Origin: Arcobacteraceae bacterium
Lineage (GTDB): Bacteria; Campylobacterota; Campylobacteria; Campylobacterales; Arcobacteraceae
Assembly: GCA_048268245.1 (NCBI GenBank)
Contig: JBLWVX010000009.1
Location: 1 to 64,000 of the forward strand
Length of the DNA: 64,000 nucleotides
Direction: 5' to 3'
Below the pieces are notes generated by a model. That model had not been told where the DNA came from and searched no databases. It saw only the letters and a program-made list of their open reading frames with translations. Positions 18,419-64,000 of the stretch are shown here, in pieces; within the stretch, counting starts at the first letter, position 1, and each line of letters begins with the position of its first letter. A program made the translations under genes and the position numbers.

Positions 18419-19300
18419 CTATTTTTCGTTAGGCATTCTAACTACATGTTTTGCAATTTTATACCCTAAGGCTTCTAAAGCTGCTACATCATCTTTAGGA
18501 GTTTTACCCTCAGTAGTTAAGTAATCACCAATTACAAAAGCATTAGCACCTCTCTCAAAGATTTCATACTGTTGCTCACCAAACATTAACTCTCTTCCAC
18601 CTGCTACCATGATTTTATGTGCATTAGGAATCATTTCTCTTGCTAATTCGATTAATTCAAAAGCTTGTTCTCTTGTAATTGAATTCTCTACAAGAGGTAA
18701 TGCTTCATTTGGATGGAAGAAGTTTAAAGGTACATTCATAGGATCTAATGAAGCAATAGATTTTAACATAGAAATTCTATCTTCTTGAGTTTCACCCATT
18801 CCAAAAATCCCACCACATACAAGTTGTAAACCTGCTTCTTTAACATTTAAACAAGTTTGGTATCTTTCATCCCATGAGTGTGTTGTACAAATCTCTGGAT
18901 AATACTCTTTTGAAGCTTCTAAGTTGTGATTGTAGTTATCAACACCAGCAGCTTTTAGCTTTTTTAATTGTTCAACAGTTGCTGTACCATTACAAGCAAT
19001 TAATCTTAATCCTAAGTTTTCTGCTTTTACAGCCTTTGCAACTTCGGCAATATATTCAGTTTTTTTATCAGTAAGTCCTAATCCAGCTGTTACTAAACAG
19101 AACCCAACAGCTCCATTTTCTCTAGCTCTTTTAGCCTCTTCGATAATTTGCTCTACAGTTTTCATTTTATATCTTTGAATATCTGCTTTATATCTTACAC
19201 TTTGTGTACAGAATTTACAGTCTTCATTACAAGTACCACTTTCTACATTACAAATTGCACATAAAAATATTTCATCAGTCACTTTAAATTTTTCGTTCAT
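18419..19300 (-). CDS. bioB: Biotin synthase
   Basis: CNEDCKFCTQS radical-SAM motif, YNHNLE and GDYLTT. Confidence 0.95.
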   Translation of the reverse strand: MNEKFKVTDEIFLCAICNVESGTCNEDCKFCTQSVRYKADIQRYKMKTVEQIIEEAKRARENGAVGFCLVTAGLGLTDKKTEYIAEVAKAVKAENLGLRLIACNGTATVEQLKKLKAAGVDNYNHNLEASKEYYPEICTTHSWDERYQTCLNVKEAGLQLVCGGIFGMGETQEDRISMLKSIASLDPMNVPLNFFHPNEALPLVENSITREQAFELIELAREMIPNAHKIMVAGGRELMFGEQQYEIFERGANAFVIGDYLTTEGKTPKDDVAALEALGYKIAKHVVRMPNEK

Positions 19301-19802
19301 ATTTATACTCTTCTTTCTTAAAAAATTGTTCGTTTGTATTTTTAAAATAGTATGAGATTATATACTCATTTTCATTAATTTCTAAAAAGACACACTCAAT
19401 TAGTGGTTTTTCCCTTGCACAAACCTCCCCTGGGTTTACAAAAAGTGTCTTATTTTTATAATCATGCTCAAACATATGAGTATGTCCAAAAATAACCACA
19501 TCCGTATCAGGAGTTAGATGATAAGGTAAATGCATTAGTTTAAATTTTATATCTTTTATTTTAAAGTAGTACGGCTCTTGTTTAATTCTATACTTATTTG
19601 AAAAAGAAATTAAACCCATATCATTATTACCAAAAACTGAAACATAGACTAGACCTGATTGCTCAAGAAGTTTTAGGTTTTCTTCCACACATAAGTCTCC
19701 TGCATGGATTAAATATTGACTTCCTTTTTCTTTTAAAAAGTCAATTACTTCTTTTGTATAGCCCACCTGATGGTGGCTATCTGATAAAATTCCTATTTTC
19801 AT
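19284..19802 (-). CDS. YfcE-like metallophosphoesterase
   Basis: SDSH, HAGD, GNND, GHTH and NPG motifs. Confidence 0.88.
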   Translation of the reverse strand: MKIGILSDSHHQVGYTKEVIDFLKEKGSQYLIHAGDLCVEENLKLLEQSGLVYVSVFGNNDMGLISFSNKYRIKQEPYYFKIKDIKFKLMHLPYHLTPDTDVVIFGHTHMFEHDYKNKTLFVNPGEVCAREKPLIECVFLEINENEYIISYYFKNTNEQFFKKEEYKYERKI

Positions 19803-22171
19803 TAGCTTTTAGAAGGGCTCTTTTTTGCTGTCGTTTTTTTAGTTGTAGTCTTTTTTGTTGTTGTTTTCTTAGCTGTTGTCTTTTTTGCAGTAGCTTTTTT
19901 CGCTGTTGTTTTAGACTTTGGATCTTTTGCAATTATCTCTTGACACTCTTCTAATGTTAAATTTTCTGCAACTTTTCCTTTTGGTATTTTAAAGTTTTTT
20001 CTACCTTGTTTGATATATGCCCCATATCTTCCATTTAAGATTTGAATCTTTTCTTCTGCAAACTCTTTTATTGTAGCTTTTGCTTTTGCTTCATCAAGCT
20101 CTTTGATTACCTCTTTAGCTCTTGCTTCTTCAATAGTATATGGATCATCAGTTTTTAATGAATAATATTTACTTTTTACTTGTAAATACGGCCCAAATCT
20201 TCCAATGTTTGCTTTGATATCTTCCCCATCTTCTGTTTGTCCAACAACTCTTGGTAAAGTAAATAAAAATAGTGCTTCTTCAAGTGTAATTGTATCCATA
20301 TTTAAATGATCAGGAATTGCAACAAACTTTGGTTTTTCCTCATCATCTTTAGTACCAATTTGAACAAAAGGTCCATATCTTCCAACTCTAGCACTAATTG
20401 GCTTACCAGACTCTGGGTCTGTTCCAATCTCTCTTACTTGAAGATAATCTTCTTTATTAACACTCTCTTCTTTTTCAACAATTGTTTTTTTGAAATTTCC
20501 ATAAAAGTCAGTCATCACTTGTTCCCAAGCTATTTTACCCTCTGCAATTTCATCAAACTCTTCTTCTATTTTAGCTGTAAACCCTAAGTCAACAATATCT
20601 GAAAAATGATCATTTAAAAATGAGTTTACAATCTCTCCTGTTGGAGTTGGTGCTAATTTTTTATCTTCTGTTTTTACAACATATTCTCTTTGTTGTATTG
20701 TTGAAATAGTAGGAGCATAAGTTGATGGCCTTCCTATTCCTTCACTCTCTAATTTTTTAACTAGTGATGCTTCTGTATATCTTGCAGGTGGCTTTGTAAA
20801 TAACTGTTCTAACTCTAATTTTGAAAGATTTAAAACTGTACCTTTTTTGATTGTTGGAAGAATTTTTTCACTACTATCAAGTGCAGATTCAGGATTATCA
20901 CTTCCTTCTGTATATGCTTTCATAAAACCTGGGAATACTATTCTTTGTCCCTTTGTTTGGAACTCATATTCACCATCTTTTCCAGCTTGGATTTTATATG
21001 TAGTATTTGCAATTTGAGCCGGTGCCATTTGAGTAGCAAGTGTTCTTTTCCAAATTAAACTATAAAGTTTATATTGAGAAGCCTCTACATAAGGTTTTAT
21101 ATCACTTGGTTTTAAGCTTAGATTTACAGGTCTAATAGCTTCGTGAGCCTCTTGTGCTCCTTTTGCCTTAGATTTATAAACTCTAGGCTTACTTAATGAA
21201 TAGTCTTTTCCATATTCAGCTTCAATTACTTCTTTTGCAGCACTTGTTGCAACTTTAGAAAGGTTTAGTGAGTCAGTTCTCATATAAGTGATTAAACCAC
21301 CTGAATGATCTGGAATGTTTCCTACATTACCTTCATATAACTGCTGTGCAATAATCATTGTTTGCTTTACAGAATATCCAAGCTTTCTACTGGCTTCTTG
21401 CTGTAAAGTAGATGTTGTAAATGGAGCTGCTGGGTTTCTTTTTGAGTCTTTTTCCTCAATATCAACTAATGTGAAATTTCCAAGTTTTAAAGAAGCTTCT
21501 ATTGCTTTAGCTTGGGCTTCATTTGTTACTTTTACATTTTTACCATTCTCTTTAGCTAATTCTGATTTTAAAGATGGATCTATAAACTCAGATTTAATTT
21601 TCCAATATTCTTCTGGTTTAAACTCTCTAATTTCATTTTCTCTATCAACTATGATTTTAACTGCAACAGATTGAACCCTTCCTGCACTTAAACCATATCT
21701 TACTTTTTTCCATAATAATGGTGAAAGTTCATAACCAACAGCTCTATCTAAAATTCTTCTTGCTTGTTGGGCATCAACTAAATTTTGGTCAACATCTCTT
21801 GGGTTTTCTAATGCTTTTATTATTGCATCTTTAGTGATTTCGTGAAATACAATTCTTTTAATAGGGTTTTTTTCAATTTTTAGTGCGGGGATTAAGTGCC
21901 ATGCAATAGCCTCTCCCTCTCTATCCTCATCGGCCGCTAGATAGATTGTTGTATCTTTAGTAATCTCTTTTTTTAAATCGCTTATTACTTTCTTTTTATC
22001 AGTTGATACTAAATACTTTGGCTTAAAATTATCTTCTGGGTCAAACCCTAATTTTGATTTTGGTAAATCTCTTACATGACCCATAGAAGCCATTACCTTA
22101 AAATCTTTACCTAAAAATTTTGATATTGTCTTTGCTTTGGCTGGAGACTCCACTATTACTAAATTCTTCAC
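19802..22171 (-). CDS. topA: DNA topoisomerase I
   Basis: LVIVESPAKAK, DEDREGE, SAGRVQS and ITYMRTDS motifs. Confidence 0.98.
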   Translation of the reverse strand: MKNLVIVESPAKAKTISKFLGKDFKVMASMGHVRDLPKSKLGFDPEDNFKPKYLVSTDKKKVISDLKKEITKDTTIYLAADEDREGEAIAWHLIPALKIEKNPIKRIVFHEITKDAIIKALENPRDVDQNLVDAQQARRILDRAVGYELSPLLWKKVRYGLSAGRVQSVAVKIIVDRENEIREFKPEEYWKIKSEFIDPSLKSELAKENGKNVKVTNEAQAKAIEASLKLGNFTLVDIEEKDSKRNPAAPFTTSTLQQEASRKLGYSVKQTMIIAQQLYEGNVGNIPDHSGGLITYMRTDSLNLSKVATSAAKEVIEAEYGKDYSLSKPRVYKSKAKGAQEAHEAIRPVNLSLKPSDIKPYVEASQYKLYSLIWKRTLATQMAPAQIANTTYKIQAGKDGEYEFQTKGQRIVFPGFMKAYTEGSDNPESALDSSEKILPTIKKGTVLNLSKLELEQLFTKPPARYTEASLVKKLESEGIGRPSTYAPTISTIQQREYVVKTEDKKLAPTPTGEIVNSFLNDHFSDIVDLGFTAKIEEEFDEIAEGKIAWEQVMTDFYGNFKKTIVEKEESVNKEDYLQVREIGTDPESGKPISARVGRYGPFVQIGTKDDEEKPKFVAIPDHLNMDTITLEEALFLFTLPRVVGQTEDGEDIKANIGRFGPYLQVKSKYYSLKTDDPYTIEEARAKEVIKELDEAKAKATIKEFAEEKIQILNGRYGAYIKQGRKNFKIPKGKVAENLTLEECQEIIAKDPKSKTTAKKATAKKTTAKKTTTKKTTTKKTTAKKSPSKS
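19820..19912 (-). repeat. 15-bp-period repeats encoding the (K)KTTAK Lys-rich tail of TopA
   Basis: Translates to KTTAKKATAKKTTAKKTTTKKTTTKKTTAKK. Confidence 0.85.
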
Positions 22172-57307: not shown

Positions 57308-59179
57308 ATGAAATACGATATTATCGTTGTGGGTGGAGGACATGCTGGTATTGAAGCAGCCTTAGCATCTGCAAGAATGGGTAAAAAAACCCTACTTATT
57401 ACAATGTTAGTAGAGCAAATTGGTGCTGCTTCTTGTAATCCTGCTATTGGTGGACTTGCAAAAGGGCACCTAGTTAGAGAACTAGATGCCTTAGGTGGAG
57501 AGATGGGTCTATGTACTGATGCTACAGGTATCCAGTTTAGAATCCTAAATGCCTCAAAAGGTGCAGCAGTCCAAGGAAGTCGAGCTCAAATTGATATGGA
57601 TAAATATAGAGAGTATATGAGAAAGGTTTGTCATAACACTGAGAACCTTGAAGTATACCAAGATGAAGTGAGTGAACTTCTAATAAATGAAAACAAAGAA
57701 GTTTACGGTGTAAAAACTAGACTTCAAGAAGAGTTTGAAGCTTCAAAAGTTATCCTTACAACTGGTACATTTATGAAAGGACTTATTCACATTGGTGAAA
57801 ATAAGTACGATGCAGGTAGAGCATGGGAGCTTCCATCATCAACTTTATCTATTCAGTTAAAAGAGCTTGGATTAAATGTAGGAAGACTAAAAACAGGAAC
57901 ACCTGCAAGAATTGATGGAAAATCAATCAACTTTGAAAACATGGAAATGCACGGGGGAGATGTAAACCCAGCACCTTTCTCTTTTAGAACAAATAAAGAA
58001 GAGTTTAGCCCTACTCAATACCCATGTTATATCACATACACAAACCTTGATACACATGAAACTATTAGATCTAACTTTGATAGAACTCCACTATTTACAG
58101 GTCAAATAGAAGGTACAGGTCCTAGATATTGTCCTAGTATAGAAGATAAAGTAAATAGATTCGCTGAAAGAGATAGACACCAACTATTCCTAGAACCACA
58201 AACATCTATGTGTACAGAATACTACATAAATGGTCTTTCAACTTCACTTCCTATTGATGTACAAAAAGAGATGATACACTCAATCGTTGGACTTGAAAAT
58301 GCAAAAATCATTAGATATGGATATGCTATTGAGTATGATTATGTTGATCCTACTGAGTTAAAACACACCTTAGAAACTAAAAAAGTTAAAAACCTTTACA
58401 ACGCAGGTCAAATTAACGCAACTACAGGTTATGAAGAAGCTGCAGCACAAGGACTAATGGCAGGTATCAATGCATGTTTAGCAATAGATGGAAAAGAACC
58501 ATTTGTACTTAGACGTGATGAAGCCTACATTGGAGTTTTAATTGATGACTTAGTTACAAAAGGAACAAATGAACCATATAGAATGTTCACAAGTAGAGCA
58601 GAATACAGACTTCTTTTAAGAGAAGAAGGTGCTGATTTAAGACTTAGTCCTTATGGTTATGAATTAGGTCTTATCAATGATGAGACAATTGAAAAAGTAA
58701 ACTTCAAACAAAAAGTTATTGATGAATCAATAGAATTTATGAAAAATGAATGGTTTACATCTAAAAAAGAGAACCTTGAACTGCTTGAAAGATTAGGACA
58801 AGATAAAATCAAAGATAGAGTACTTTTAATTGATATTGTTGGAAGAAGTACTGTTAAAATTGAACATCTTGATGAGTTCTTGCCACAATATGCTGACTTA
58901 TCAGACTATTTAAAAGAGCAAATCTTAGTAGAAGCAAAATACTTTAGATATGTAGAAAAACAAAAAAAGCAAATTGATAAGATGAAAAAAATGCTTAAAA
59001 TGACAATTCCAGAAGACTTTGACTTTAGTCAGATTTCAGGCTTATCAAATGAAGCAGTGGAAAAACTTCAAAAGTTCAGACCACCTACTCTTTTCAATGC
59101 AAGTGAGATTTCAGGAATTACACCTGCTGCTATTGATGTTATTCATATGTATATGAACCTTAAATGTGAAAAGCAGTAA
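57308..59179 (+). CDS. mnmG: tRNA uridine-5-carboxymethylaminomethyl synthesis enzyme MnmG (GidA)
   Basis: [41 protein letters not shown] and [14 protein letters not shown] motifs. Confidence 0.98.
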
Positions 59180-59232
59180 AAATTGATAATGTGCAGTAAA
59201 AAATGATAATATATATGCTAAAACTTGATAAT
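59165..59232 (+). repeat. Tn7-like transposon end: terminal TGT plus three TnsB-type binding repeats
   Basis: TGTGAAAA (59165-72), then GCAGTAAAAATTGATAAT (59173-90), GCAGTAAAAAATGATAAT (59193-210) and ATGCTAAAACTTGATAAT (59215-32). Confidence 0.75.
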
Positions 59233-59248
59233 GAAAGTTTAAAATAAC

Positions 59249-61318: not shown

Positions 61319-61909
61319 TTATTTAAGACTATTTGAAAAATCCATCATTAAATGAAATAATTTTAATGAGGAATGATTTGATGAATATAATTTATTAGAT
61401 TCTATAGAATTTAAAGAAATAGACATTTTATTTAAATTTTCATCAATATCTATTTTTTCTACTATAAAGCCAAGCATAGCATTTAATCCATAATAACTTG
61501 AATAATATCCTGTTAAAAACCTATCTACACCATTAGTAATATAGTGATTATTTAAAGTTGACTTTCCATCTAACCTTTTACATTCAATTATGTAGTAAGC
61601 CTTATAATTCTCAAAATCATTAATATCTTTAATTTTTAAATCTACTCTTCCTGTCTTCTCATCAACTTCTTTATCTAATAAAAAGCCATAAATATTACAA
61701 ATTTCATTCCTAATTTTTGTCTCAGAAATATATTCATATAAAGTATCTCTAATTTTATTTTCATCATTCTTAGGTACTTTTACCTTATCAGCAATCATAT
61801 ATTCATAGCAACTATAAATATTAAGTAATAGGTTTTTAAATGTATTTTCATATATTGTCTCTGATTGAATAAAAGCAGTAGCATCTAAATCTAATTCTAA
61901 TTCTTCCAC
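61319..61909 (-). CDS. PD-(D/E)XK-fold putative nuclease
   Basis: E....GRVDL...IIECKRL catalytic-type motif; overlaps the 3' end of the methyltransferase gene. Confidence 0.55.
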   Translation of the reverse strand: MEELELDLDATAFIQSETIYENTFKNLLLNIYSCYEYMIADKVKVPKNDENKIRDTLYEYISETKIRNEICNIYGFLLDKEVDEKTGRVDLKIKDINDFENYKAYYIIECKRLDGKSTLNNHYITNGVDRFLTGYYSSYYGLNAMLGFIVEKIDIDENLNKMSISLNSIESNKLYSSNHSSLKLFHLMMDFSNSLK

Positions 61910-64000
61910 TGATTTCTCCCTGCTTTTAATATCGCATTTTTAAACTCATTAAAATCCAAATAACCTACAGCTTTGTGCCAGTTTTTATACTCATTAGGTT
62001 TAACTACATAAAAACCATTCTTTTCAAAACCTTTAATATCCTTCTGTATAAATAAACTTTCTAAAGATTTGGATCCTGATAGTTTTATAAAATTATCTAT
62101 ACTTTTTTCTTCAACCCAGTCTATATTTTTTGAACTATCGCAACTGTTAGTAATTGAAAAAAACATACAGATAGCATATTTATTATAGATAACTTTTACA
62201 TTTAAATACTTTTTTTCATTTTTAAAAATATCTGAAAAATAATTAATATAAATATCCAAATATTCTATTAACATATTTTTATCTCTTTGTTTTGATAAGT
62301 TTAAACCTTTAAAAACTTTAGAGAAATCTTTTTTCATAATCCAAGGTATTAACACCTCTTGAGAATAAGATATTAATGTTTTTTCTTGTTCATTTAAATT
62401 AAAATCATTTAATACACTTTTATCCAAGTCATTTTTTAGTCTTCTAAGTTTTGTCTCGTCAGGTAATAAAATTTCTTCTTTAAAAAAATTTTCAATTTTC
62501 TTTACTAAATTAATAGTTTTTTTACTAAAAATAAAAGGAACACCAAACTTCTCAAAATTATGAACCTGTTCCCTTTCTGTTCCAATTGAAGATGCTGTAT
62601 GAATCATAATATACTTAAAAATAGATGAATTTAAGATACCCATAATATTGTATAAAGTATCTTTATCTTTGCATTTCACAGCTGTAATGGAATCTTTAAA
62701 AATCGAATCTCTATTTAAAACTCCCATTTTTAATTCAAGCTCTCTACTTATTCCTTTTGATATCAATAAAGAGGGTGCCTTAAACAACTCTAAATCTTTA
62801 GCCCTATGAACTGATTTTGTTTCCCACTTCTTATCACTTTCTCCAATATAGCAGATTTTAAACTGTTTTGTTTCTACAAAAGGCATACCAATATATTTAG
62901 TTGCATCATTATCATCACAGCCATTCTCGATAATTCCCTGTTTTGCATCTTCATAATTATTTTCAATATTACTGTAACTTTTAAATTTCTTTATCAATTC
63001 AAAATCTAAATAGTTTCCATAAATTAATGTTTTCCATAAATAATCATTTTCAATCAGTTTTTGCTGTAAAACTTTTTTATAATCCTGCTTTGAAATAAAT
63101 AACATTTTTAATTTATTAAAAAATGGAGTTGGTTTTACGGATATATATTTTATCAACTGATTTTCATTTGTTCCTAGCTTGTAAAACATTACTAAAACAG
63201 GTGTTGTCGCTGTAGGAAAAACTTCATTTCTTACAGAAGATAACTCTAATATATGATCAATTGAATAATTTGATAAGAAATATCTTCTAAAATCTCTAGA
63301 TTGTACATTATAAAAATTTTTACTGTTTAAAATAAACGCAATTTTTGATTTTTTTATAATATCACTTGCTCTAAGCATAAAAGCTTGAGAAATTTCTTTA
63401 TTTCCAATTTTTACATTATCATATGATTTTTTTCTATAATTCAAATATTCAGTTAAAATTTTAGAATTCCCAGCACCTCTTTTATATGGAGGGTTTCCTA
63501 TCATAAAATTAAAATCTATATTTTCTAGAATTTTATTGTAATCTGCAGAATAATCAAAAAAATCTGCATTAAAAAAATTTGCTTTAGGGTTTTTATTACT
63601 TTCAAGTAAATAAGGAAATTTAAACTCTTCTATATCTTTAGGTTTTAAATAATCTAACATTGTTAGATATAATGAAAAAACACTAATCATTACTGCATTT
63701 TTATCCTTATCTATTGCATATATATTCTCTTCTACTAAATGCTTGATTTCAGAAGGCTTAATTAACCTTTTTTTAATTTTCTGAAACTGATGAATTAACT
63801 TTCTTAATGTTTCCACTAAAAAAATTCCACTTCCACATGCAGGGTCTATAACTTTACAAGAATATTTCTCTGGGTTATTATTAAAATATTCGTCAACTGT
63901 ATGTTTTAAAATATAGTCTACTAAGAAAGTTGGGGTATAAAACGCTCCATTTTTAGATTGTGTTTCTTCTCCTATGAAGCTTTCATAAACATTTGATATA
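61897..64000 (-). CDS. N6-adenine DNA methyltransferase, type IIG/Eco57I-like, with C-terminal specificity region (5' end outside window)
   Basis: Frame is open to the window edge: GAFYTP, motif I VIDPACGSGIFL (63817-63852, upstream of the track start) and motif IV IGNPPY. Confidence 0.88.
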   Translation of the reverse strand, partial: ISNVYESFIGEETQSKNGAFYTPTFLVDYILKHTVDEYFNNNPEKYSCKVIDPACGSGIFLVETLRKLIHQFQKIKKRLIKPSEIKHLVEENIYAIDKDKNAVMISVFSLYLTMLDYLKPKDIEEFKFPYLLESNKNPKANFFNADFFDYSADYNKILENIDFNFMIGNPPYKRGAGNSKILTEYLNYRKKSYDNVKIGNKEISQAFMLRASDIIKKSKIAFILNSKNFYNVQSRDFRRYFLSNYSIDHILELSSVRNEVFPTATTPVLVMFYKLGTNENQLIKYISVKPTPFFNKLKMLFISKQDYKKVLQQKLIENDYLWKTLIYGNYLDFELIKKFKSYSNIENNYEDAKQGIIENGCDDNDATKYIGMPFVETKQFKICYIGESDKKWETKSVHRAKDLELFKAPSLLISKGISRELELKMGVLNRDSIFKDSITAVKCKDKDTLYNIMGILNSSIFKYIMIHTASSIGTEREQVHNFEKFGVPFIFSKKTINLVKKIENFFKEEILLPDETKLRRLKNDLDKSVLNDFNLNEQEKTLISYSQEVLIPWIMKKDFSKVFKGLNLSKQRDKNMLIEYLDIYINYFSDIFKNEKKYLNVKVIYNKYAICMFFSITNSCDSSKNIDWVEEKSIDNFIKLSGSKSLESLFIQKDIKGFEKNGFYVVKPNEYKNWHKAVGYLDFNEFKNAILKAGRNQWKN

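Follow-up and report, generated by a model that had tools for sequence, protein, structure and literature searches.

Transposons of the Tn7 family carry ends built of 5'-TGT, 8 bp and arrayed TnsB sites, create a 5-bp target duplication upon insertion, and are guided by TnsD/TniQ proteins that recognize the 3' ends of conserved genes such as glmS. A pairing of one compact end with one dispersed end is typical (Tn7R and Tn7L); in Tn7 itself, tnsA abuts the compact right end and TnsE serves a pathway that is not site-specific. TnsD is reported to bind in the coding end of glmS (PMC2918618). Elements of the Tn6022/AbaR type, as treated by Faure et al. (2023), combine a Tn7-like core with a short TniQ and a tnsE on the opposite strand, and insert within a coding sequence; in Tn6022 the target comM is disrupted and the selector is TnsF, an inactivated tyrosine recombinase. 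We analyzed a 64,000-nucleotide stretch of an Arcobacteraceae bacterium (hereafter the window), which makes up the first 64 kb of contig C9 (75,367 bp) in a genome of 57 contigs (G000). Positions 59140-59248 of the window very probably represent the junction of mnmG with the compact end of a Tn7-family cut-and-paste transposon that probably inserts site-specifically through a TniQ/TnsD-type selector.

The original prediction, made from the letters of the window, was that a Tn7-like element targets mnmG and supplies its stop codon. This proposal is supported by what we observed directly: the parts of the element including its tns genes, its ends with their duplications, and a position and orientation that are fixed among related elements. 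At the junction, the TGT at 59165, the 8-bp terminus and the three 18-bp repeats that had been described were all found as stated, with repeats at 59173-59190, 59193-59210 (17/18 identical to the first) and 59215-59232 (13/18), and start-to-start spacings of 20 and 22 bp. The mnmG frame crosses the junction at 59164/59165, and its final four codons and stop (59165-59179; TGT GAA AAG CAG TAA, CEKQ-stop) are transposon DNA, again as proposed. When up to 3 mismatches are allowed, the 18-mer is expected 0.51 times per window, versus 3 matches found, two of these adjacent at the junction. A scan of all 57 contigs for an end signature (TGT, 16 nt, a TGATAAT-like core, and extra cores within 180 nt) returned four hits, and three exact cores occurred solely at C9:59165 and C36:23821. 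The same scan of five shuffled genomes returned 2, 2, 2, 0 and 0 hits, which were weaker.

The second of these positions, at the very end of contig C36, is the inverted end, terminating in ACA followed by TTAAA, that the prediction had called for. Read inward from C36:23821, it consists of TGT and cores at +20, +111, +132 and +166, and the contig stops 183 nt in. The 5 bp directly outside its TGT are the reverse complement of TTAAA, the predicted duplication, which means that TTAAA flanks both sides of the element. Beyond the duplication, the reverse-complemented C36 flank carries a gene for a 456-amino-acid pyridine-nucleotide-disulfide oxidoreductase that starts 197 nt out, and a homolog of this gene directly follows mnmG in two genomes of the same genus, G004 and G005 (76-77% DNA identity over ~1.4 kb). 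In the mnmG frame, the flank reads K-E-E-S-N-stop after TTAAA, resembling the KREE-stop tail of G004. Measured from C9:59165 over the contig end to C36:23821, the element is at least 16.4 kb long. An inverted repeat after the K-E-E-S-N-stop of the C36 flank could be a native terminator.

The tnsA, tnsB, tnsC-type and tniQ genes that had been sought downstream are present on the same contig, 6-10.6 kb from the junction, each as a single copy in the genome (Table 1). Two points refine the earlier description: the tns operon lies at the far end of the element and reads towards mnmG, and the gene at the mnmG-proximal end is tnsE-like rather than tnsA. Residues D232, D316 and E352 of TnsB are invariant in 3 sequences and can be read as its DDE triad. 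The tnsA product also matches NCBIfam TnsA_like, below the cut-off of that model. All open reading frames (ORFs) downstream of the junction on C9 are full length up to the contig end, where the unassembled interior of the element begins with a cut-off ORF (C9:75281-75367). The intact ORFs, ends and duplication suggest that the element may have been active recently.

Table 1 Features of the junction and of the element on contig C9 (contig and window share the same numbering).
Feature	Position	Strand	Basis
mnmG, 623 amino acids (aa)	57308..59179	+	Pfam GIDA E 6.4e-164, GIDA_C_1st, SAM_GIDA_C
Conserved block of mnmG coding DNA, at about -53 to -10 relative to the insertion	59112..59155	+	27-sequence alignment of mnmG 3' ends
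Target-site duplication, copy 1, TTAAA	59160..59164	+	reverse complement abuts TGT of the other end, C36:23816-23820
mnmG-proximal compact (Tn7R-like) end	59165..59233	+	8-bp TGT terminus; three TnsB-type sites, TGATAAT cores at +20, +40, +62
tnsE-like gene, 565 aa	59249-60946	+	codirectional with mnmG; fold matches and UniRef names of homologs; synteny
Cargo ORF, 196 aa, weak PD-(D/E)XK signature	61319..61909	-	Pfam PDDEXK_9 E 0.0016, below curated cut-off; no match in NCBIfam or PADLOC
Cargo Type IIG restriction-modification enzyme, 970 aa	C9:61897-64809 (leaves the window at 64000)	-	PADLOC REase_MTase_IIG 2e-192, residues 3-966; Pfam Eco57I, N6_Mtase
tniQ, 390 aa	C9:65188-66360	-	Pfam TniQ 3.4e-22
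tniB/tnsC, AAA+ regulator, 289 aa	C9:66363-67232	-	Pfam TniB 8.2e-53
tnsB, 625 aa	C9:67242-69119	-	Mu-transpos_C 6.8e-14 (above cut-off); rve 1.2e-4 (below cut-off)
tnsA, 220 aa	C9:69119-69781	-	Pfam Tn7_TnsA-like_N 1.3e-08, 35.8 bits vs cut-off 26.5
AAA/STAND-like ORF, 830 aa	C9:69935-72427	+	
ORF, 500 aa	C9:72533-74035	-	
NA37-like ORF, 370 aa	C9:74035-75147	-	

The 3' end of mnmG in G000 was set against those of 19 relatives. Within the same genus, four of the five other species (G001, G003, G004 and G005) have an empty site with unrelated native tails and without repeats, and one has a degenerate remnant; the comparison with relatives proposed in the original prediction yielded same-genus genomes in which the C36 flank gene directly follows mnmG. 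Two relatives (G011 and G017) are occupied, in the order mnmG, tnsE-like gene and cargo, then tniQ, tniB, tnsB and tnsA reading towards mnmG. Five more are scarred, with end-like DNA after mnmG and no tns genes in the next 10-20 kb: in G014, a solo compact end with its three sites immediately precedes an endonuclease-IV-like gene; G007 retains a compact end plus ~130 nt of the 5' region of the tnsE-like gene; G002 and G019 appear to carry degenerate versions of the end, and G016 apparently just its first ~15 nt.

These comparisons also bear on whether the three repeats belong to a transposon at all. Their location, a stretch of 69 nt from the mnmG stop to the following ATG, is one in which promoter or operator sites would also be expected, and they could in principle be operator sites for a regulator of the 565-amino-acid gene or native intergenic repeats unrelated to transposition. 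We regard this as extremely unlikely, as the same cores occur inverted at the second end, together with a TGT and a 5-bp duplication that matches, do not follow mnmG in same-genus relatives lacking the island, and travel with tnsABC-tniQ across genera. The mnmG (gidA) gene is often origin-proximal, and the repeats were also considered as DnaA boxes near oriC; the discovery of the second end and of the duplications led us to drop this idea.

The junctions of G017, G007 and G002 (L016, L013 and L009) have a somewhat different layout, with two cores only and then, ~55-110 nt into the compact end, a conserved inverted repeat with a stem of ~10 nt. This repeat may act as a terminator and keep transcription of mnmG from running on into the element.

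The survey of mnmG-adjacent islands that had been suggested revealed related elements at the same mnmG position in other genera, with 5-bp duplications of their own. Ten junctions show the same succession of mnmG, terminus, site cores and tnsE-like start, in one orientation throughout. Counted from the first base of the conserved mnmG motif ACNCCNGC, the element begins after 45 nt in seven junctions (G000, G017, G011, L035, L046, L042 and L044) and after 44 nt in three (L036, L041 and G257). Nine of the ten compact ends begin with TGT; a core is present at +40 in 10/10 and at +20 in 9/10, and a third at +61/+62 within one mismatch in 8/10 (it was missed in G017 and L042, which have two cores only at this threshold). 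At the distal end, all six elements compared have a core at +20, with further cores from ~+111 to +150 in five, and L036 has the +20 core only. In order to detect duplications, we took the 5 bp just before the junction at each of seven loci and searched the 9.5 kb upstream of tnsA for a TGT preceded by their reverse complement. Perfect 5-bp duplications were found at five loci, with exactly one match each (TGAAA, TGAAC, TCGGT, ATTGC and TGAGA, G011 and L038 being counted once); a core at +20 follows in all five cases, and more cores beyond +110 within one mismatch in four. The tnsE-like gene adjoins the mnmG-proximal end in the related elements, and in L042 and L044 the distal end is ~220-280 bp from tnsA.

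A wider view was obtained by scanning a TnsB alignment against a collection of species-representative genomes. This returned 80 loci, among which 13 were close (61-68% identity) and 67 were at most 42% identical. The close loci belong to Sulfurovum, Sulfurimonas, Arcobacter, Sulfurospirillum, Poseidonibacter, Campylobacter showae, Sulfurimonadaceae and Arcobacteraceae. The 67 distant loci showed no adjacent mnmG within 10 kb, apart from a weak partial match in one. Among the close loci, mnmG was reached within the locus in two (L035 and L041), and in the parent genomes of five further ones it was found on the same contig every time (5/5), convergent with the tns operon and 15-25 kb from tnsB. 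The stretch of L038 stops short of mnmG; L038 may duplicate the G011 element, because both carry the TGAGA duplication, in L038 at the far end. The other five close loci include loci cut by contig ends.

We also searched for TniQ in 401 genomes sampled evenly from the order and belonging to the same collection, so that the hits overlap with those of the TnsB scan and the counts are not additive. A close TniQ (at least 49% identity) was present in 13 of the 401 genomes, including G000, from five family groups, with a partial copy in one more. In 10 of the 12 other genomes, tniQ lies 1.8-21 kb from the mnmG 3' end and is convergent with it; counting G190, in which the operon is inverted, 11 of the 12 have tniQ beside mnmG, and in G310 the two genes are on different contigs. 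A second TniQ family, ~30% identical, occurs in 15 genomes, with the copy of G001 (C1:2814842-2815900) 249 kb from mnmG; this TniQ is presumably that of a Tn7-like family using a different attachment site.

Such a distribution could conceivably stem from one ancient insertion that was inherited vertically and is now immobile, rather than from repeated homing to mnmG, and decayed copies do exist: G257 is without tnsA and tnsB, the tnsA of G011/L038 is in two frames, and G014, G007, G002, G019 and G016 have solo or degenerate ends. We consider this very unlikely in view of the empty sites in four of the five other species of the genus (with a degenerate remnant in the fifth), the patchy occurrence of close TniQ across the order, the five intact tns genes and perfect duplication of G000, and the cargo and tniQ-to-mnmG distance (1.8 to 21 kb), which vary between elements.

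Several of these copies have features of their own. The tnsA of G011 (L029:13497-14149) and of L038 (9344-9996) consists of two overlapping pieces in different frames, suggesting a frameshift or a sequencing error; the ends and the duplication are otherwise perfect. The decayed copy of G257 (L130) comprises tniB, tniQ, the tnsE-like gene and the compact end, with no cargo between tniQ and the tnsE-like gene, and neither tnsA nor tnsB was found in the 8 kb upstream. G190 (L131:3417-8001 and 18477-19997) harbors the most divergent member, with a TniQ 49% identical; its tnsA-tniQ operon is inverted and its tnsE-like gene still abuts mnmG.

The end of the transposon is laid out such that mnmG remains closed by a stop codon. 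The TGATAAT core spells TGA TAA; the +20 and +62 cores share one frame and the +40 core is in another. In the 45-nt junctions it is the +40 core that falls in the mnmG frame, and in the 44-nt junctions the +20 core, and therefore mnmG closes after 4 to 13 element-encoded codons, as the translated junction strings confirm for every junction compared. The element-encoded tails include CEKQ, CKKQ and CKTQK, and 13-residue tails in L035, L046, L042 and L044. The terminal Pfam domain of MnmG stops at residue 612 of 623; since the replaced residues lie beyond it, a loss of MnmG function through the new tail seems unlikely.

The alignment of 27 mnmG 3' ends shows that codon positions 1 and 2 are conserved in the block from about -53 to -10 (Table 1) and that the final 9 nt before the junction are not. 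By analogy with Tn7, this block is a putative recognition site, and a TniQ/TnsD protein would bind it ~10-53 bp upstream of the insertion point. TniQ would then recruit TnsC, which would bridge to TnsA and TnsB bound at the TGATAAT-core sites of both ends. Cut-and-paste insertion with a 5-bp staggered cut of the target would follow within the last mnmG codons, 44-45 nt past the ACNCCNGC motif and always in the same orientation, and the transposon end would supply the 4-13 replacement codons and the stop that keep mnmG open. The TnsE-like protein, again by analogy with Tn7, probably provides an alternative pathway that is not site-specific. We judge the chances to be evenly balanced that the 390-amino-acid TniQ alone reads ~40 bp of the near-universal mnmG and directs insertion in one orientation, the end having evolved to finish the host ORF with cores that double as TGA TAA stops in two frames. 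If it is true that mnmG depends on the first bases of the element for its stop, this would explain why solo ends or remnants of ~15 nt persist, as in G014 and G016.

Several observations weigh against the interpretation as a mnmG-specific Tn7-like transposon. The two ends of the G000 element are on different contigs: no k-mer of 15-127 nt from the C9 or C36 end recurs at either end of any other contig, and nothing usable among the contig ends continues the ORF that is cut at the end of C9. Because no sequence overlap joins the two contigs, we infer their linkage, with an incomplete interior, from the duplication, the end architecture and the synteny. The junction L116 (parent genome of L045) starts with TCA instead of TGT, with its three sites and tnsE-like gene intact, and this compact end may have been inactivated. 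Two of the seven loci tested for duplications (L035 and L041) gave no match, the far end probably lying outside the searched DNA. In G017, the distal terminus (L027:15652-15677; TGT, core at +20) is flanked by TCTGT and not by the expected TAAAA, and no better distal end was found within 40 kb; the locus may have been rearranged later, or a tandem element may be present. The proposal that TniQ reads mnmG coding DNA relies on family analogy and on the lack of another conserved gene, and the TnsE-like assignment relies on modest Foldseek E-values (~1e-2) and on names given by the source. Finally, TniQ has 390 amino acids, and Faure et al. (2023) suggest direct target selection for the larger protein of loci with two TniQ-TnsD genes, usually of more than 400 amino acids.

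The length of TniQ is one reason to ask whether a Tn7-like element at mnmG could rely on a selector other than TniQ alone, with the TnsE-like protein, a host factor or an unrecognized factor of the element reading the site and TniQ acting as an adaptor, as for TnsF in Tn6022. Faure et al. (2023) also show TniQ as a hub for a separate selector, and the tnsE-like gene is the sole other gene conserved in all full elements, always at the mnmG-proximal end. Such an arrangement is nevertheless unlikely. The AlphaFold model of TniQ (predicted local distance difference test score, pLDDT, 72.9) can be aligned for most of its length with TniQ of type I-B and I-F CRISPR-associated transposons (CASTs) and with TnsD in a TnsD-TnsC-DNA complex, with E-values ranging from 2e-06 to 1e-03 (8fcu_P, 2.1e-06; 8v32_J, 3.5e-05) and low template-modeling (TM) scores, as expected for multi-domain chains. 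It has ~230 residues outside the Pfam TniQ domain, and the 14 TniQ sequences aligned from the group are 47-66% identical and share conserved Cys/His clusters. The C-terminal domain of the 565-amino-acid protein resembles TnsE, which is non-site-specific in Tn7, and neither a tyrosine-recombinase-like TnsF nor a cas gene was seen among the 11 ORFs scanned. TniQ is the likely reader of mnmG, because no gene besides the tns genes and the tnsE-like gene is conserved across the full elements and because the distal end is so near tnsA in L042 and L044.

The 565-amino-acid protein had no match in Pfam, NCBIfam, PADLOC or PDB sequences. It has 272 homologs, mostly from Aliarcobacter, several of which are named 'TnsE C-terminal domain-containing protein' in UniRef. 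Its AlphaFold model (pLDDT 72.2, with a disordered stretch at 302-409) gave in Foldseek seven top PDB matches that are all TnsE C-terminal domains (5d17, 5d16 and 9d5l; probability 1.00, TM 0.57-0.64 on the target, E-values of just 0.011-0.048). Because of this fold and the names of the homologs, we call the protein TnsE-like, with moderate confidence.

The element resembles Tn7 in its heteromeric TnsA/TnsB transposase, TnsC-type AAA+ regulator, TniQ/TnsD-family selector and TnsE-like protein, in its TGT...ACA termini with one compact and one dispersed array of sites and a 5-bp duplication, and in its single orientation, with the compact end beside a conserved gene at a fixed distance from conserved coding DNA near the 3' end of a housekeeping gene. 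Its membership in the Tn7-like (heteromeric TnsA/TnsB) family is secure, because all of the defining features that can be judged from sequence were found. It is not Tn7 proper, because its target is mnmG and not glmS. It also differs from Tn7 in that insertion occurs inside the ORF and the end provides the stop, whereas Tn7 inserts downstream of the stop; in that the tnsABC-tniQ operon is at the dispersed end and reads towards the target, with the tnsE-like gene on the other strand at the compact end; and in the length of its selector, 390 versus ~500 amino acids for TnsD. With the Tn6022/AbaR-type elements it shares the three traits introduced above (short TniQ with a Tn7-like core, opposite-strand tnsE and insertion within a coding sequence); unlike comM in Tn6022, the target ORF stays open here, and no TnsF-like gene was seen. 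Judged by its assembled part, the element does not appear to be a CAST: no Cas family was found among the 11 ORFs of C9:59249-75147, in a scan that covered the assembled part only and included no CRISPR search. Nor is it Tn5053/Tn402-like: such elements comprise TniABQ with a TniR resolvase and have no TnsA, whereas TnsA is present here and no resolvase was seen among the ORFs scanned.

Elements of this kind have been counted before. Table S1A of Benler et al. (2021, mBio) lists TnsB genes of Arcobacter and Sulfurimonas genomes under 'clade3', and such elements are therefore already recorded there as Tn7-like; the main text and the searchable part of the supplement mention neither mnmG nor gidA and do not describe the attachment site or the in-ORF junction. 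The supplements of Faure et al. (2023) likewise contain neither mnmG nor gidA. In agreement with the suggestion that mnmG had not been described as a Tn7 attachment site, we found no publication in the searchable literature that names mnmG or gidA as one for the Tn7 family, in a search without subscription journals, so that an earlier mention is possible. Two literature matches were set aside: a paper on Pseudomonas aeruginosa GidA, which has no attachment-site or TniQ terms, and Tn7409, a match to 'Tn7' that is unrelated. The genome paper of A. butzleri RM4018 describes integrase islands and not the mnmG element.

Each selector of the Tn7 family defines a precise and harmless landing site, which is the basis of the mini-Tn7 tools and a guide for programmable insertion. 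A mnmG-specific selector would add a landing site in a gene of nearly all bacteria, within a group (Arcobacter, Sulfurimonas, Sulfurovum, Campylobacter and relatives) of which 13 of the 401 sampled species genomes have the close element, and would represent another answer to the problem of doing no harm, namely to insert within an ORF and rebuild its end, as opposed to inserting after the stop. The mnmG site is a hot spot that collects defense cargo, here a Type IIG restriction-modification enzyme, and leaves recognizable scars, which aids the annotation of islands and of mnmG ends. If TniQ alone does read mnmG, the system would be a compact, ready-made 'safe-harbor' integration system for Campylobacterales.

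The DNA around tnsA in G000 has a further peculiarity. The 153-bp gap upstream of this gene (L006:12783-12935; L006:12800-12900 corresponds to C9:69800-69900) contains two TnsB sites of the inner type, one of them having 13 nt in common with an inner site at the C36 end. The gap was considered as the distal end and rejected, given that it holds inner-type sites only, no TGT terminus was found in it, and an inverted-repeat search returned AT-rich noise (787 pairs). One possibility, given that the distal terminus lies at least 5.6 kb beyond these sites, is that the cargo of the distal arm (the 830-amino-acid AAA/STAND-like, 500-amino-acid and NA37-like ORFs) was acquired within an older end; another is a merger of two elements. 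In the cargo on the other side of the operon, the 196-amino-acid PD-(D/E)XK-like ORF begins 13 nt within the 3' end of the Type IIG restriction-modification gene (61897-61909), and this overlap suggests translational coupling within a two-gene defense cargo unit.

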